Part shown: piece by piece, positions 29,526 through 39,411 of the stretch
Layout of the letters: every line of letters starts with the position of its first letter
Numbering within the stretch: the stretch's first letter is position 1
IMG/VR virus record: IMGVR_UViG_2875703104_000004
Source of the DNA: a virus
Lineage: Duplodnaviria > Heunggongvirae > Uroviricota > Caudoviricetes
Strand: one strand, 5' to 3'
Length of the DNA stretch: 64,000 bases
The notes under the pieces: model-generated
Told to the model about the DNA's origin: nothing
The model's database searches: none
What the model saw: only the letters and a program-made list of their open reading frames with translations
Translations under genes and position numbers: made by a program

Positions 29526-32217
29526 TCTTGTTATTGACCTGAGTCTGGATGCTGTCCGTTTCGATGAGCAGATGAGCCGGGTAAGGCGTCATTTTTCAGG
29601 TCTGGATACCGACGCCAGAAAAACCGCCAGTGCTGTTGAACAGGGCCTGAGCCGCCAGGCGCTGGCTGCACAAAAAGCCGGGATTTCCGTCGGGCAGTAT
29701 AAAGCGGCCATGCGAACCCTGCCCGCACAGTTTACGGATATCGCCACGCAGCTTGCCGGTGGTCAGAATCCCTGGCTGATCCTGCTGCAACAGGGCGGTC
29801 AGGTGAAGGACTCCTTCGGCGGGATGATCCCCATGTTCAGGGGGCTTGCCGGTGCGATCACCCTGCCGATGGTCGGGGTCACCTCGCTGGCGGTGGCGAC
29901 AGGTGCGCTGGTGTACGCCTGGTACCAGGGAGATTCCACGCTTTCAGCGTTTAATAAAACCCTGGTTCTTTCCGGTAATCAGTCCGGACTGACTGCCGAT
30001 CGCATGCTGACGCTCTCCAGAGCCGGACAGGCCGCAGGGCTGACGTTTAACCAGGCGAGTGAGTCACTGGCAGCCCTGGTGAATGCCGGTGTGCGTGGTG
30101 GTGAACAGTTTGATGCCATCAACCAGAGTGTCGCGCGTTTTGCTTCTGCATCCGGTGTGGAGGTGGACAAGGTTGCAGAGGCTTTCGGAAAACTGACCAC
30201 TGACCCGACGTCGGGGCTGATTGCGATGGCGAAGCAGTTCCATAACGTGACGGCGGAGCAGATTGCGTATGTTGCTCAGTTGCAGCGTTCCGGCGATGAA
30301 GCCGGGGCATTGCAGGCGGCGAACGAGGCCGCAACGAAAGGGTTTGATGACCAGACCCGACGCTTGAAAGAGAACATGGGCACGCTGGAAACCTGGGCAG
30401 ACAGGACAGCACGGGCATTCAAATCCATGTGGGATGCGGTGCTGGATATTGGTCGTCCTGATACCGCGCAGGAGATGCTGATTAAGGCAGAGGCCGCGTT
30501 TAAGAAAGCGGACGATATCTGGAATCTGCGCAAGGATGATTATTTTGTTAACGATGAAGCGCGGGCGCGTTACTGGGATGATCGTGAAAAGGCCCGTCTT
30601 GCGCTTGAAGCCGCCCGAAAGAAGGCTGAGCAGCAGAGTCAACAGGACAAAAATGCGCAGCAGCAGAGCGATACCGAAGCGTCACGGCTGAAATATACCG
30701 AAGAGGCGCAGAAGGCTTACGAACGGCTGCAGACGCCGCTGGAGAAATATACCGCCCGTCAGGAAGAACTGAACAAGGCACTGAAAGACGGGAAAATCCT
30801 GCAGGCGGATTACAACACGCTGATGGCGGCGGCGAAAAAGGATTATGAAGCGACGCTGAAAAAGCCGAAACAGTCCGGCGTGAAGGTGTCTGCGGGCGAT
30901 CGTCAGGAAGACAGTGCTCATGCTGCCCTGCTGACGCTTCAGGCNGAACTCCGGACGCTGGAGAAGCATGCCGGAGCAAATGAGAAAATCAGCCAGCAGC
31001 GCCGGGATTTGTGGAAGGCGGAGAGTCAGTTCGCGGTACTGGAGGAGGCGGCGCAACGTCGCCAGCTGTCTGCACAGGAGAAATCCCTGCTGGCGCATAA
31101 AGATGAGACGCTGGAGTACAAACGCCAGCTGGCTGCACTTGGCGACAAGGTTACGTATCAGGAGCGCCTGAACGCGCTGGCGCAGCAGGCGGATAAATTC
31201 GCACAGCAGCAACGGGCAANNNNNNNNNNNNNNNNNNNNNTGGCGCATAAAGATGAGACGCTGGAGTACAAACGCCAGCTGGCTGCACTTGGCGACAAGG
31301 TTACGTATCAGGAGCGCCTGAACGCGCTGGCGCAGCAGGCGGATAAATTCGCACAGCAGCAACGGGCAAAACGGGCCGCCATTGATGCGAAAAGCCGGGG
31401 GCTGACTGACCGGCAGGCAGAACGGGAAGCCACGGAACAGCGCCTGAAGGAACAGTATGGCGATAATCCGCTGGCGCTGAATAACGTCATGTCAGAGCAG
31501 AAAAAGACCTGGGCGGCTGAAGACCTGCTTCGCGGGAACTGGATGGCAGGCCTCAGGTCCGGCTGGAGTGAGTGGGAAGAGAGTGCCACGGACAGTATGT
31601 CGCAGGTAAAAAGTGCAGCCACGCAGACCTTTGACGGTATTGCACAGAATATGGCAGCGATGCTGACCGGCAGCGAACAGAACTGGCGTGGTTTCACCCG
31701 TTCTGTGCTGTCCATGCTGACAGAGATTTTTCTGAAGCAGGCGATGGTGGGGATTGTCGGGAGTATCGGCAGCGCTATTGGCGGGGCTGTTGGTGGCGGC
31801 GCATCCGCGTCAGGCGGTACAGCCATTCAGGCCGCTGCGGCGAAATTCCATTTTGCAACCGGAGGATTTACGGGAACCGGCGGCAAATATGAGCCAGCGG
31901 GGATTGTTCACCGTGGTGAATTTGTCTTCACGAAGGAGGCAACCAGCCGGATTGGTGTCGGCAACCTGTATCGTCTGATGCGCGGGTATGCGGAAGGTGG
32001 TTATGTCGGCGGTGCCGGAAGTCCGGCGCAGATGCGGCGGGCCGAAGGTATTAATTTTAATCAGAACAATCACGTGGTGATTCAGAACGACGGTATCAAC
32101 GGACAGGCGGGGTCGCAGCTGATGAAGGCGGTGTATGACATGGCCCGCAAGGGGGCACAGGATGAACTCCGGCTGCAGTTGCGTGATGGCGGTCTGTTAT
32201 CAGGGAGCGGTCGATGA
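29506..32217 (+). CDS. H: tail tape measure protein H (contains an N-run and a redundant block)
   Basis: 903-aa ORF paralogous to 7558..10054; N-run at 31220-31240 flanked by duplicated ~132-bp blocks. Confidence 0.8.
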   Translation: MSQPVGDLVIDLSLDAVRFDEQMSRVRRHFSGLDTDARKTASAVEQGLSRQALAAQKAGISVGQYKAAMRTLPAQFTDIATQLAGGQNPWLILLQQGGQVKDSFGGMIPMFRGLAGAITLPMVGVTSLAVATGALVYAWYQGDSTLSAFNKTLVLSGNQSGLTADRMLTLSRAGQAAGLTFNQASESLAALVNAGVRGGEQFDAINQSVARFASASGVEVDKVAEAFGKLTTDPTSGLIAMAKQFHNVTAEQIAYVAQLQRSGDEAGALQAANEAATKGFDDQTRRLKENMGTLETWADRTARAFKSMWDAVLDIGRPDTAQEMLIKAEAAFKKADDIWNLRKDDYFVNDEARARYWDDREKARLALEAARKKAEQQSQQDKNAQQQSDTEASRLKYTEEAQKAYERLQTPLEKYTARQEELNKALKDGKILQADYNTLMAAAKKDYEATLKKPKQSGVKVSAGDRQEDSAHAALLTLQXELRTLEKHAGANEKISQQRRDLWKAESQFAVLEEAAQRRQLSAQEKSLLAHKDETLEYKRQLAALGDKVTYQERLNALAQQADKFAQQQRAXXXXXXXXAHKDETLEYKRQLAALGDKVTYQERLNALAQQADKFAQQQRAKRAAIDAKSRGLTDRQAEREATEQRLKEQYGDNPLALNNVMSEQKKTWAAEDLLRGNWMAGLRSGWSEWEESATDSMSQVKSAATQTFDGIAQNMAAMLTGSEQNWRGFTRSVLSMLTEIFLKQAMVGIVGSIGSAIGGAVGGGASASGGTAIQAAAAKFHFATGGFTGTGGKYEPAGIVHRGEFVFTKEATSRIGVGNLYRLMRGYAEGGYVGGAGSPAQMRRAEGINFNQNNHVVIQNDGINGQAGSQLMKAVYDMARKGAQDELRLQLRDGGLLSGSGR

Positions 32218-33696: not shown

Positions 33697-34062
33697 ATGT
33701 ACCAGATGGAAAAAATCACAACAGGTGTGTCATACACCACGTCAGCGGTGGGAACGGGCTACTGGTTCCTGCAGTTGCTGGACAGGGTTTCCCCGTCTCA
33801 GTGGGCGGCAATAGGCGTGCTGGGGAGTCTGCTGTTTGNNNNNNNNNNNNNNNNNNNNNAAAAAATCACAACAGGTGTGTCATACACCACGTCAGCGGTG
33901 GGAACGGGCTACTGGTTCCTGCAGTTGCTGGACAGGGTTTCCCCGTCTCAGTGGGCGGCAATAGGCGTGCTGGGGAGTCTGCTGTTTGGGCTGCTGACAT
34001 ATCTGACTAACCTGTATTTCAAAATCAGAGAGGACCGGCGTAAGGCGGCGCGGGGAGAGTAA
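33697..34062 (+). CDS. S: class II holin / pinholin (phage 21 S-like); ORF inflated by a redundant block around an N-run
   Basis: [26 protein letters not shown]...[40 protein letters not shown]: two TM segments, charged C-terminus, dual-start M..M; 33711-33838 repeated after the N-run 33839-33859. Confidence 0.75.
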
Positions 34063-36028: not shown

Positions 36029-36226
36029 GCGACCTTATTATCCATGCGCGGTATTGTCGCCGTATTCCTGCATTAACAGAGACCGCAGCCCGACAGGGAG
36101 ACTCCTCTGCGCGAGTGTGCGGGGATAATCAAAAACGATACACACCGGGGTTTACCGCGTTAACGGAGCGCGGCGTTGTCCCCTCATAGTCGCCTGTCCG
36201 GTGCGATGGTGGAAGAAACCGAACGT

Positions 36227-36427
36227 TCATTTCTCGTTATTTGTCATGCTGGTCGGGCGCAGATGCGTTGCATCTGTTGCCAGCCTTCTCCTGCAGGCTT
36301 CAATAACCCACGCTGAAAAGTTACCGGACCCTTTATGCTCAAGGGCTATGTTGATTTGTTCAATTATGTGATTGGGGAAACGGATATTGCGGGTTGTGGT
36401 TCTGCGGGTCCGGTTTTTCGATGACAT
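36227..36427 (-). CDS. small basic protein, possible ribbon-helix-helix DNA-binding protein
   Basis: 66-aa ORF MSSKNRTRRTTTRNIRFPNHIIEQINIALEHKGSGNFSAWVIEACRRRL with AGGA RBS 7 nt upstream; divergent from the HNH gene. Confidence 0.35.
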   Translation of the reverse strand: MSSKNRTRRTTTRNIRFPNHIIEQINIALEHKGSGNFSAWVIEACRRRLATDATHLRPTSMTNNEK

Positions 36428-36468
36428 ATTTATTTCCTTTACTGATTGCCATATGACGGGGATTTTAC

Positions 36469-36834
36469 ATGGCTGAGCTTCGTACACTCCAGAGCAGAAT
36501 CAAAACACTGAATACCCGACGGGTGAATATTCTGAAGGGGGAACAGCGTCGTGTCAGTGGCAGTGCACGTGTTTCCCTCAAGCGTCATATCTGGCTGAGG
36601 GACGCCGGGCAGTGCTGTATCTGTGGTCGTGTGGTTGACCTCTGTGACAGTGAACTCGATCACCGAATTGCACTTCAGTTCGGTGGTGGTAATGAGGAGA
36701 CGAATCTCTGGACGCTCTGTACCGAATGCCATCGACAAAAGTCTGCTCGTGAAGCGGCGGGTGGTATGCCGGACCCGACGCTGCCGGAGGTGTCCGGAGG
36801 TAGTGACAGAGCGGACGACATCATCGGACTGTAA
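36469..36834 (+). CDS. HNH endonuclease, packaging-associated type
   Basis: CCICG..(n)..DHRIALQFGG..NLWTLCTECHRQK is an HNH zinc-finger nuclease motif; located immediately upstream of the terminase genes. Confidence 0.8.
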   Translation: MAELRTLQSRIKTLNTRRVNILKGEQRRVSGSARVSLKRHIWLRDAGQCCICGRVVDLCDSELDHRIALQFGGGNEETNLWTLCTECHRQKSAREAAGGMPDPTLPEVSGGSDRADDIIGL

Positions 36835-36926
36835 CCCGACCCGGGGGGGGTATCATCCGGCGTAAAAAACGATCGCTTTGGACACCGCGCCCCCTCTCAC
36901 GCAGAGAAAAAATTCCCGTTTCAGGG

Positions 36927-37052
36927 CAGTTAACATGTTAACTGGCTGCCCGGGCATTTTTGCGGTTTTTATCTTTATTATTCAGTTTGTTGTGCGGAAA
37001 AAATGTTAACAGGCTTTTTCAGCAAATGTTAACCAGGCAGCAGTTAACATTT
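36927..37052. promoter_or_regulatory. cluster of GTTAAC-containing repeats (candidate cos / terminase recognition region)
   Basis: 18-bp palindrome cagttaacatgttaactg at 36927-36944, aaatgttaac at about 37001 and 37024, inverted copy gttaacattt at about 37043. Confidence 0.45.
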
Positions 37053-37125
37053 GCGGCATGAGACGCCGGGGAAAAATGGGCTGAACCATACCCGGCTGAG
37101 TGCGTTCTGGACCCGGGAGGAGGCT

Positions 37126-37689
37126 GTGCTGACAACGCAAAAACGAAAATTTGCGCTGGCGCTCATGTCCGGGAAAAACAAAACAGCGTCAGCCATTGCC
37201 GCCGGTTATTCGGCGAAGACCGCCAGGGTTAAAGGCTCGCAGCTGGCAAAAGATCCGGAGGTGCTTGCGTTTATAGCCCGTAAACAATGCGAGACGGTGG
37301 AGGTGGATGAGGTTCCTGTTTACCGGCAGAAAAAATCAGAGCAGGAGGATAAACCCCGTCGCCGTGAGGCGGCTGCAATACCTCAGCCGGACGAAAATAA
37401 TCCGGAGATGCCACCGTCCGCGGTGATGTCTCCTGGTATTGAATATATGGAGGATGGTCTTCCCGATCCGGTGAAAGCCATGGGGCGGATCCTGGTGGAA
37501 AACCTCTGCATTGATCCGAAACTGGCACTGGATGCGGCCTGGCGTCTGGCGCAGTTCACGCACCATAAAAAAGGGGATACCGGGAAAAAATCGGCAAAAG
37601 GTGATGCCGCGAAAAAAGCGGCTAACCGTTTTGCGGTGCCACCGCCACCCCGACTGGTGGTGAATAACGATAATGAGGGCAACGGATGA
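37126..37689 (+). CDS. terminase small subunit
   Basis: GTG start after GGGAGGAGG; TTQKRKFALALMSGKNKTASAIAAGYSAKTARVKGSQLAKDPEV is the typical TerS HTH. Confidence 0.75.
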   Translation: MLTTQKRKFALALMSGKNKTASAIAAGYSAKTARVKGSQLAKDPEVLAFIARKQCETVEVDEVPVYRQKKSEQEDKPRRREAAAIPQPDENNPEMPPSAVMSPGIEYMEDGLPDPVKAMGRILVENLCIDPKLALDAAWRLAQFTHHKKGDTGKKSAKGDAAKKAANRFAVPPPPRLVVNNDNEGNG

Positions 37690-39347
37690 TACCTGTATGG
37701 AGCACAGCCTGCCCGGACTGGGCAGAGCGCCTGAAAAAGGGGCTGTCGATTATTCCGGATCCGATTTATCCGGACGAGGCCGCACATGCCCTGGCGATTT
37801 TTAAACAACTGCGGATTGTGGATGCACCTGGTAGCCCGACGTTCGGGGAGTCCTGTGCACCGTGGGTGTTTGACCTGGTGGCGGCCCTGTTTGGCTCCTA
37901 CGATGCGCAGACCGGTGTACGCCATATCAAGGAAGTTTTTATCCTTATCCCCAAGAAAAACTCGAAGTCCACGCTGGCCGCGGGGATCATGATGACTGCA
38001 CTGTTACTGAACTGGCGGCAGGCGGCGGGTTACACGATTCTGGCCCCGACTGTGGAGGTGGCGGCCAACGCCTTCAACCCTGCCCGGGATATGGTACGAC
38101 GTGACGATGATCTGGATGACCTCTGCCAGGTACAGACCCATATCCGGACCATCACCCACAGGGTGACAGACACCACCCTGAAGGTGGTGGCTGCCGATCC
38201 GAATACGGTGTCCGGTATCAAGTCCGTGGGTACGCTGATTGATGAGTTGTGGCTGTTTGGCAAGCAGTGCAAGGCGGAGGACATGTTACGTGAAGCCATA
38301 GGCGGCCTTGCCTCCCGCCCGGAAGGGTTTGTGGTGTATACGACCACCCAGTCGAATGAACCGCCTGCCGGGGTGTTCAGACAGAAACTGCAGTACGCCC
38401 GGGATGTGCGCGACGGCAAAATTCATGATCCGCACTTTCTGCCGGTGATATTTGAACACCCTCCTGAAATGGTGGAAAGCGGGGCTCACCTGCTGATGGA
38501 AAACCTCGCCATGGTCAATCCGAATCTCGGCTATTCAGTGGATGAGGCCTTTCTGTACCGGGAGTACCGTAAAGCCCGGGAAGCCGGTGAAGAGACATTC
38601 CGGGGGTTCATGTCAAAACACGCCAATGTGGAAATTGGTCTTGCCCTGCGCTCTGACCGCTGGGCGGGGGCTGATTTCTGGGAAGAGCAGGGCCGTTGTA
38701 TCAGCCTGGACGATATCCTGCGTCGTGCTGATGTGGTGACGGTGGGGATTGACGGCGGAGGGCTGGATGATCTGCTGGGGATGTATGTGATTGGGCGTGA
38801 CCGGGAGACCCGCGAATGGCTGGGCTGGGGCCATGCCTGGGCGCATGAAACCGCGGTGGTCCGACGGAAGAGCGAGGCGTCCCGGTTTCAGGATCTTGTT
38901 GCCTGTGGAGATATGACCATTGTCCGGCGTGTCGGGGATGACACGGCGGAAGTGGCGGAATATGTGCGTCGCATTCATGAGGCTGAGTTACTGGACCATA
39001 TCGGTATTGACCCGTCAGGGGTGGGGCAGATTCTGGATTCACTGGCGGAAGCCGGGATCCCCGACGGAATTGTGGTGGGGATAAGCCAGGGCTGGAAGCT
39101 GGGCGGGGCCATCAAAACCACCGAGCGCAAACTGGCTGAAGGGGTACTGGTGCATGGTGGCCAGCCCCTGATGGCCTGGTGTGTCGGCAATGCCCGGGTG
39201 GAGCCTAAAGGTAACGCCATCCTTATTACCAAACAGGCCAGCGGACGGGGAAAAATTGACCCGCTGATGGCGCTCTTCAATGCGGTGTCCCTGATGTCCC
39301 TGAATCCGGAACCGAAAAAGAAAGCGTATGAGGTTTTTTTCATATAA
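37686..39347 (+). CDS. terminase large subunit (HK97-type)
   Basis: 553-aa ORF with Walker-A-like LIPKKNSKSTLAAGIMMTALL and a C-terminal nuclease-like region; overlaps the TerS stop. Confidence 0.8.
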   Translation: MIPVWSTACPDWAERLKKGLSIIPDPIYPDEAAHALAIFKQLRIVDAPGSPTFGESCAPWVFDLVAALFGSYDAQTGVRHIKEVFILIPKKNSKSTLAAGIMMTALLLNWRQAAGYTILAPTVEVAANAFNPARDMVRRDDDLDDLCQVQTHIRTITHRVTDTTLKVVAADPNTVSGIKSVGTLIDELWLFGKQCKAEDMLREAIGGLASRPEGFVVYTTTQSNEPPAGVFRQKLQYARDVRDGKIHDPHFLPVIFEHPPEMVESGAHLLMENLAMVNPNLGYSVDEAFLYREYRKAREAGEETFRGFMSKHANVEIGLALRSDRWAGADFWEEQGRCISLDDILRRADVVTVGIDGGGLDDLLGMYVIGRDRETREWLGWGHAWAHETAVVRRKSEASRFQDLVACGDMTIVRRVGDDTAEVAEYVRRIHEAELLDHIGIDPSGVGQILDSLAEAGIPDGIVVGISQGWKLGGAIKTTERKLAEGVLVHGGQPLMAWCVGNARVEPKGNAILITKQASGRGKIDPLMALFNAVSLMSLNPEPKKKAYEVFFI

Positions 39348-39372
39348 CCCTGCTCACCCTGTAACCATCATG

Positions 39373-39396
39373 AACCGCTGCGGCGGTTTTTTTTAT
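39373..39396 (+). terminator. rho-independent terminator after TerL
   Basis: aaccgc-tgcg-gcggtt hairpin followed by a T8 run. Confidence 0.55.
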
Positions 39397-39411
39397 TTTC
39401 AGGAGGCTGAT

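Follow-up and report, generated by a model that had tools for sequence, protein, structure and literature searches.

Where does DNA packaging begin and end in the prophage carried by this stretch of DNA, and which protein reads the signal? The stretch, referred to here as the window, is 64,000 nucleotides (nt) long and derives from a virus of the Caudoviricetes (IMG/VR record IMGVR_UViG_2875703104_000004). It holds a lambdoid prophage of the BP-4795 / 2851 / JLK-2012 / Stx1a-Stx2c siphophage group, with 92–99% nucleotide identity over 1.5 kb to 94 deposited phage records. The question is raised by a 291-nt interval between an HNH endonuclease gene and terS, which encodes the small terminase subunit. 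In an initial annotation this interval was taken for a cos (cohesive end site) or packaging initiation region. The analysis described here indicates that it is probably the cos site, serving both initiation and termination of packaging, of an HNH-dependent, HK97-like module in a Shiga toxin (Stx)-phage-like lambdoid siphovirus prophage.

The interval is defined by the genes on either side. The HNH gene (36469–36834, plus strand) encodes 121 amino acids (aa), matches Pfam HNH (E=3.8e-7), is annotated likewise in RefSeq relatives and lies directly 5' of cos. An HNH gene holds the equivalent position in Salmonella phage FSL SP-016 and in Burkholderia phage Bcep176. The terS gene (37126–37689, plus strand, 187 aa) matches Pfam Terminase_2 above the cut-off (E=1.3e-8). 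Its most likely start is the GTG at 37126, which is preceded by the Shine-Dalgarno sequence GGAGGAGG at 37116–37123 and agrees with the 187-aa RefSeq model of BP-4795. The HNH-terS interval therefore spans 36835–37125. Next comes terL (37686–39347, plus strand, 553 aa), encoding an HK97-like large terminase with Pfam TerL_ATPase and TerL_nuclease domains and 23% identity to HK97 gp2 (E=2e-11). These reading frames and their Pfam matches bear out the earlier placement of an HNH gene directly before TerS and TerL. An HNH gene adjoining the terminase genes, here 291 nt before terS, is the arrangement of HNH-dependent HK97-like cos modules.

The likely position of the cut is given by two relatives with defined ends. 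Lys8385Vzw was reported from PhageTerm analysis as a cos phage with 3' ends and the cohesive end CGCCCCCCCT (PMC7946995). Its TerS is 95.7% identical to that of the window, and CGCCCCCCCT forms the last 10 nt of its record (MT225100), which ends in ...GGACACCGCCCCCCCT and restarts with CTCACGCAGAG... This 10-mer aligns onto window positions 36886–36895 (CGCGCCCCCT) with one mismatch. In Bcep176, a relative deposited independently whose TerS is only 37% identical, the homologous 10-mer CGCACGTTCC is found at both ends of the linear record. One copy is followed by CTCACGCGCAGAAAATTTTCCC...terS, with CTCACGCGCAGAAAA adjoining, and the HNH gene and a G-rich run lie before the second copy. The ends of the two phages bracket the identical 10 nt, and by homology they provide defined cohesive ends between an HNH gene and terS. 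In the Lys8385Vzw / BP-4795 / 2851 / Stx1a-Stx2c group, to which the window is 92–99% identical here, the same repeats and cos core occur, and the overhang CGCCCCCCCT differs from CGCGCCCCCT by one base. Among close relatives the overhang is polymorphic at two positions, 36889 and 36894.

From this homology we infer that the prophage would be cleaved at 36886–36895 (cosN), giving the 10-nt 3' cohesive end CGCGCCCCCT. The initial annotation had held that the cleavage site could not be determined from sequence, a view which the Lys8385Vzw and Bcep176 ends supersede, while its proposal of a cos or packaging initiation region gains support from the PhageTerm 3' end of a near-identical phage and the terminal 10-mers of Bcep176. 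Two further sources of ends were considered and discarded. The phi330 record (PV189401) merely stops at the terS/terL junction and is uninformative, and Burkholderia vB_E264-type records start at inconsistent offsets from terS, leaving Bcep176, with its 10-nt repeat at both ends, as the only one of these used.

Defined ends bear directly on the possibility of headful (pac) packaging, which would be expected for a TerS of the SF6/SPP1 Terminase_2 type and would make the repeats of the interval a pac site. The N-terminal domain of the window TerS is indeed of the SF6 G1P type, and repeated TerS boxes are likewise a feature of SPP1-type pac sites. This is opposed by the 3' cohesive ends of a phage with a 95.7%-identical TerS, the 10-nt terminal repeats of Bcep176, the HK97-like TerL and the adjoining HNH gene, which is typical of cos phages. 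Headful packaging is considered extremely unlikely.

The sequence around the cut is strongly conserved in the family. TerS relatives were gathered from genomes, viral contigs and assemblies, giving 73 distinct loci with the core GGACAC-N10-CTCAyGCAsAGAAAAAATTCCC. In the window the core occupies 36880–36917 and reads, with slashes at the nicks, GGACAC/CGCGCCCCCT/CTCACGCAGAGAAAAAATTCCC. It is near-invariant across the 73 loci, which range from Enterobacterales to Burkholderia-type phages, despite TerS identities of 33–99%. The neighbouring HNH coding sequence has drifted while the core is almost unchanged, even where TerS is 33–49% identical to that of the window. A run of eight G residues (36843–36850) lies 29 nt upstream of the core and is conserved in relatives, of which 67/73 loci have at least five consecutive G at a distance of 27–29 nt upstream. 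G-rich runs are also found in Bcep176 and HK97 at similar distances from their cuts. The G-run might act as a signal akin to cosQ, or be contacted by HNH or TerL.

HK97 provides the closest described comparison for this layout, and the order HNH-cos-terS-terL, a 10-nt 3' overhang (by homology in the window), a TerS site (proposed in the window) just past the cut, an A-tract downstream of the cut and the GAC/CGC context at the left nick are common to both. The HK97 record ends in ...ATGAC CGCCGCCAAA, and 42 nt upstream of this right end it has a G9+ATCA run; both resemble the G8+TATCA run and the ...ACAC/CGCGCCCCCT context of the window. HK97 TerS binds a single 15-bp site 15–29 bp downstream of the cut (+15 to +29), and the overhang is given as 10 nt, 3' (PMC11331095), although a length of 12 nt is stated in PMC9410871. 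The HK97 HNH protein gp74 binds TerL and stimulates cos cleavage (PMC11331095; PMC9410871). In the window, by contrast to the single HK97 site, five half-sites are spread over +32 to +159. The window HNH protein and gp74 both match Pfam HNH, but their similarity by BLASTP is not significant (E=0.1) and orthology is not claimed. HK97 gp1 has no Pfam match, unlike the window TerS (Terminase_2), and its structure shows base contacts through an N-terminal arm and a C-terminal helix, with no helix-turn-helix domain (PMC11331095). No sequence or fold relation of the window TerS to gp1-type small terminases was found. The HK97-like arrangement invoked by the initial annotation, and the comparison with HK97 cos which it proposed, therefore hold for the HNH-TerS-TerL order, the HK97-like TerL, the HNH partner and the type of end, but fail for TerS, which belongs to the SF6/Terminase_2 helix-turn-helix family, and for HNH similarity by BLASTP.

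The five half-sites lie between the core and terS. All five matches to ATGTTAAC in the window fall within 36929–37050, whereas shuffling gives an expectation of 1.28 per whole window and none of 100 shuffles reached five. A Poisson estimate for at least five matches in 291 nt is ~5e-14. The first two half-sites form a perfect 18-bp palindrome, CAGTTAACATGTTAACTG (36927–36944), which is the proposed first TerS site. The third, AAATGTTAAC (37001–37010, plus strand), is invariant in 15 distinct close relatives and is replaced by ATGTTTAT in locus L083. The fourth and fifth, AAATGTTAAC at 37024–37033 (plus strand) and 37043–37052 (minus strand), belong to the inverted pair GCAAATGTTAAC-N9-GTTAACATTTGC (37022–37054), whose 12-nt arms (37022–37033 and 37043–37054) are a perfect, 100% complementary repeat around a 9-nt gap. 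This pair is kept in L080, and is altered in concert to ATGTTTAC/GTAAACAT in L083 and L165. The palindrome and three further direct and inverted copies noted in the initial annotation, within what it gave as ~290 bp, are thus present and far exceed chance.

Conservation of the motif is visible at two depths. Among the 15 distinct close relatives, 0/38 motif positions vary, compared with 17/192 of the remaining positions from the cut to terS (p=0.04). Against L080, whose TerS is 65% identical, 38/38 motif positions are identical, compared with 105/170 elsewhere (p=1e-7). The five-site layout is maintained in three lineages whose TerS proteins are 65–78% identical to each other.

The palindrome is separated from the distal three sites by a spacer (36953–36990) rich in T-tracts, with T runs at 36957, 36966, 36974 and 36986 that are roughly helically phased. 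The diverged relatives L080 and L083 also have T-rich spacers, though of different sequence. The integration host factor (IHF) consensus WATCAANNNNTTR is not matched at 12/13 positions or better within 36835–37128. An IHF site in the spacer was dropped on these grounds and a possible intrinsic bend is preferred, for which the spacer is a candidate on the strength of its phased T runs. A 24-codon hydrophobic open reading frame (ORF; MLTGCPGIFAVFIFIIQFVVRKKC) crosses this region at 36935–37009, stopping in the TAA of the next ATGTTAAC; its counterparts have 24 codons in L080 and just 14 in L083. It probably arises incidentally from the T-rich spacer, the alternative being a small membrane peptide.

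A palindrome followed by T-runs could also be an intrinsic terminator ending the HNH-gene transcripts. The hairpin GGGCAGUUA...UGGCUGCCC has a predicted stability of about -11 to -16 kcal/mol, with U5 a few nt later, and L080 has a cleaner hairpin and U-run (-13.6 kcal/mol, z=-3.0). The window hairpin nonetheless does not outperform shuffled sequences (z=-1.4), that of L083 has very low stability (-5.6 kcal/mol, z=-0.7), and a terminator scan of the plus strand found none. The late operon must also read through to terS and terL, and a terminator leaves three further motif copies and their co-variation with TerS unexplained. Termination, for which the hairpins give no consistent support, is judged very unlikely as the role of the palindrome. 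No Rfam family was matched at E <= 1 in 36200–37400.

The origin of the palindrome is revealed by relatives with a shorter interval, which include nearly all of those outside the Stx-type group. In this short architecture, terS starts exactly 35 nt past the core: ...CCCCTCTGGAGGGTGTAAAC ATG TTA ACA GCG CAG... The window palindrome contains an ATG at 36935 which is likewise 35 nt past the core end, counted from 36899, and which is also where the 24-codon ORF begins. In blastn, similarity to FSL SP-016 extends from the G-run to ATGTTAAC and then ends. The equal offset and this break identify the palindrome, by comparison among relatives, as the ribosome-binding site and start region of the former terS gene of the family, and not as a free-standing novelty. 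The Stx-type lineage has ~190 extra nt (36945–37125), three more motif copies and the new start GTG CTG ACA.

Codon usage at the two kinds of start suggests that GTTAAC is constrained at the DNA level, irrespective of what it encodes. In the short architecture Leu2 is TTA in 43/45 loci and Thr3 is ACA in 44/45, while synonymous positions of codons 4, 5 and 7–10 vary freely. In the long architecture, with its displaced start, 18/18 loci use CTG for Leu2 and Thr3 is unconstrained by the site. In L022 (1495–1510) and L062 codon 2 of terS encodes Phe (TTT) in place of Leu (TTA); the half-site at the start codon thereby becomes GTTTAC, and the variant is written into the N-terminus of the protein.

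This history lends some weight to a view of the repeats as non-functional remnants left when the 5' end of terS was duplicated, as relatives begin ATG TTA AC, the palindrome is positionally homologous to the ancestral start and sites 2 and 3 have a few extra bases in common with the terS start (ATGTTAACAG). The pattern of conservation does not match this view: only the 8–10-nt cores are kept while their flanks drift (0/38 versus 17/192 variable and 38/38 versus 105/170 identical positions), all five cores have changed in concert in L083, and the five-site layout persists in three lineages. That the repeats are inert is distinctly unlikely.

A regulatory reading, in which the repeats are operator sites through which TerS or another helix-turn-helix protein represses terS transcription or translation, also draws on the ancestral position. 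In most relatives, the segment from the terS Shine-Dalgarno sequence to the ATG is overlapped by the imperfect palindrome TGTAAACATGTTAACA, at which a bound protein would block translation or transcription, and a weak promoter-like match lies over the window sites on the minus strand. That match consists of the motif itself, and the window sites lie 70–200 nt upstream of the terS start, where the overlap is gone. The constant offset of the first site from the cut, beginning 27 nt past the core in the phages and in a satellite described below, fits a packaging role. Regulation is therefore improbable as the explanation of the array in the window; the two roles can coexist, and a purely regulatory one is possible in the short-architecture relatives.

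If the repeats are packaging sites, the next question is what binds them. An AlphaFold2 model of the window TerS shows a helix-turn-helix DNA-binding domain at residues 1–56, a disordered linker of about 50 residues (~57–110) and a C-terminal helical region. The predicted local distance difference test score exceeds 92 for residues 1–50, and the N-terminal domain consists of helices 4–14, 19–25, 33–41 and 44–56. In Foldseek its best match is the SF6 G1P DNA-binding domain 4zc3 (template modelling (TM) score 0.84, root-mean-square deviation 1.6 A, 30% identity), and 4zc3 and 2cmp are both matched with a probability of 1.00 and TM scores of 0.82–0.84. The window TerS is thus an SF6/Terminase_2-type helix-turn-helix protein and is not of the HK97 type. 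It has the N-terminal four-helix domain of the SF6 and SPP1 G1P proteins, but with a much longer linker than SF6 G1P and a C-terminal part without a match to the SF6 oligomerisation core. SF6 and SPP1 package by the headful mechanism, whereas in the window this domain serves a cos/HNH system, as relatives have cohesive ends.

The half-sites co-vary with one residue of this domain. Residue 32 caps the predicted recognition helix (33–41) in the model. In the long architecture, TerS proteins with Thr32 are paired with TGTTAAC without exception (111 half-sites in 20 loci), and those with Ser32 are paired with TGTTTAy, again without exception (10 half-sites, comprising all five sites in both L083 and L084). 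In these two loci, whose TerS is 78% identical to that of the window, the layout is unchanged and all five half-sites are ATGTTTAT or ATGTTTAC instead of ATGTTAAC, while the predicted recognition helix reads KSARC in place of the KTARV of the window. A further TerS, P0033, has KSARC alongside a very different middle region and was predicted to carry GTTTAy; its truncated contig (L165) shows only the last 92 nt before terS, and 3/3 half-sites visible there agree. In the short architecture, the unconstrained left half-site is gTAAAC with Ser32 proteins and GTTAAC with Thr32 proteins (L022–L024). These pairings suggest a candidate TerS recognition code of Thr32 with GTTAAC and Ser32 with GTTTAC.

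Additional evidence comes from a ~9 kb island (L172:3446–11944; E. coli GCA_012987925.1; also in L081, L082, L101 and L102) encoding an integrase, an AAA_25 primase, TerS and a 307-aa Phage_capsid-family protein. No HNH or TerL gene was seen in it. Its cos core is that of the phages, and several Stx-type phages have exactly its overhang, CGCCCCCCGT. A direct pair of AAGTTACAC repeats starts 27 nt past the core, an offset equal to that of the window palindrome. Its TerS (P0061, Terminase_2) resembles Stx-type phage TerS in the C-terminal half and has a different N-terminal DNA-binding domain. From its gene content and sites, the island looks like a phage satellite that keeps the cut site of its helper but has private recognition.

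The island has a private TerS domain and private repeats without HNH or TerL, and L083 has the array with no gene called at the DUF3950/YlcI position; the repeats therefore travel with the TerS DNA-binding domain and not with HNH, TerL or DUF3950. On the evidence of the satellite, neither HNH nor TerL was retained as the protein that primarily reads the repeats. DUF3950/YlcI as the repeat binder was rejected because of L083, in which the five-site array is present and no gene is called between HNH and a 74-aa ORF, the place of DUF3950 in the window. Binding of the repeats by TerS, put forward as plausible in the initial annotation, is now well supported at the level of comparative sequence analysis, in that the motif is conserved, it co-varies with the recognition helix of TerS, and a satellite has sites of its own.

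These observations can be combined into a proposed mechanism. TerL, assisted by HNH, would introduce staggered nicks at 36885/36886 and 36895/36896 to leave the 10-nt 3' overhang CGCGCCCCCT. The recognition array would lie downstream, on the side packaged first, as the palindrome 32–49 nt past the cut, a T-tract spacer of ~56 nt, one site and the inverted pair. The helix-turn-helix domains of an oligomeric SF6-type TerS would recognise the five ATGTTAAC half-sites, with the long flexible linkers allowing the domains of the TerS ring to reach sites in both orientations. Bound TerS would recruit and position TerL and HNH at the cut site for initiation, with packaging then running rightwards. At the next cos, by analogy with what has been proposed for HK97, bound TerS would stall the motor such that the cut is made in register. 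An intrinsic bend in the spacer may bring the palindrome close to the three distal sites, much as in lambda cosB.

The resemblance to lambda cos (cosQ-cosN-cosB with R3, R2, R1 and the IHF site I1) is one of logic only, comprising a cut, small-terminase sites in mixed orientation and a bendable segment. Several repeats between the cut and the small-terminase gene are present in the window at the sequence level, but an IHF site, a 5' overhang and a lambda-like TerL or gpNu1 are not. Lambda has a 12-nt 5' overhang, the winged-helix protein gpNu1, an IHF site and no HNH, whereas the window has, by homology, a 10-nt 3' end, together with an SF6-type TerS, no IHF consensus and an HNH gene. As a further similarity, satellites keep cosN yet change cosB, as in EcCICFT073.

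Several points weigh against identifying the interval as the cos site of an HK97-like module read by TerS. The ends of this prophage are placed by homology, with an overhang that is one base off the published one, and the prophage may be non-inducible. The PhageTerm evidence comes from a single paper, and how the ends of the Bcep176 record were determined could not be traced. The window TerS is from another family than HK97 gp1, and the HK97 mechanism would transfer by analogy only. Independent co-variation switches are few, about one for each of the two architectures, and a given type of site may simply be exchanged along with its type of DNA-binding domain in a single recombination module. 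Finally, short-architecture Ser32 phages keep the right half-site TGTTAAC because it is constrained by coding, which leaves the residue-to-base rule unclean.

The wider locus is ordered as lysis genes, the minus-strand DUF3950/YlcI gene, HNH, the 291-nt gap, terS, terL, a protease-capsid fusion and portal. An HK97-type head set is recognised by Pfam, comprising TerL_ATPase/TerL_nuclease, Phage_portal (E=1e-81), Peptidase_S78 and Phage_capsid. The order across 39328–42925 is TerL, a prohead-protease::major-capsid fusion (673 aa) and then portal, while that of HK97 is portal, protease, capsid. The DUF3950 (YlcI/YnfO family) gene (36227–36487, minus strand) is oriented antisense to the late operon, with 19 nt overlapping the start of HNH; L083 has no called gene at this position and an identical cos array layout. 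The window also contains 21-N runs at 31220–31240 and 33839–33859, plus scattered single N. An identical holin-like coding stretch on either flank of the second run suggests a scaffold-gap artefact and not a real duplication.

Beyond the window, three linked proposals can be made for the family, which are offered tentatively and are, taken jointly, rather doubtful. The first is that HNH-dependent cos phages from Enterobacterales to Burkholderia, and distantly HK97, share an ancestral cos core of a G-run, ~35 nt and AC/CGC-N7/CTCAcGC.AGAAAA. The second is that an ancestral TerS site overlapping the terS start imposes the rare TTA-ACA codons and would link recognition for packaging to autoregulation of terS; in the Stx-type lineage the two were separated by a ~190-nt insertion, and the array grew to five half-sites. 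The third is that satellites exploit this modularity by combining the cut site of the helper with a private TerS DNA-binding domain and private repeats.

The element itself is a standard cos site whose position is published for the near-identical Lys8385Vzw, and the advance is incremental. The literature searched contains no description of the repeats as TerS sites, of their co-variation with TerS, of the family-wide core or of the palindrome as an old start codon. To our knowledge, structural data for TerS of cos/HNH machines exist only for HK97 TerS, which is unrelated to the window TerS. The module is a convenient system for the study of DNA recognition by a helix-turn-helix small terminase in a cos/HNH machine, for which the analysis provides a base-level prediction of the cut site, a candidate TerS recognition code and a series of naturally occurring specificity variants. 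Shiga toxin genes are spread by Stx1- and Stx2c-converting siphophages of this type, whose packaging signals determine which DNA is mobilised, including satellites and any cos-bearing DNA.

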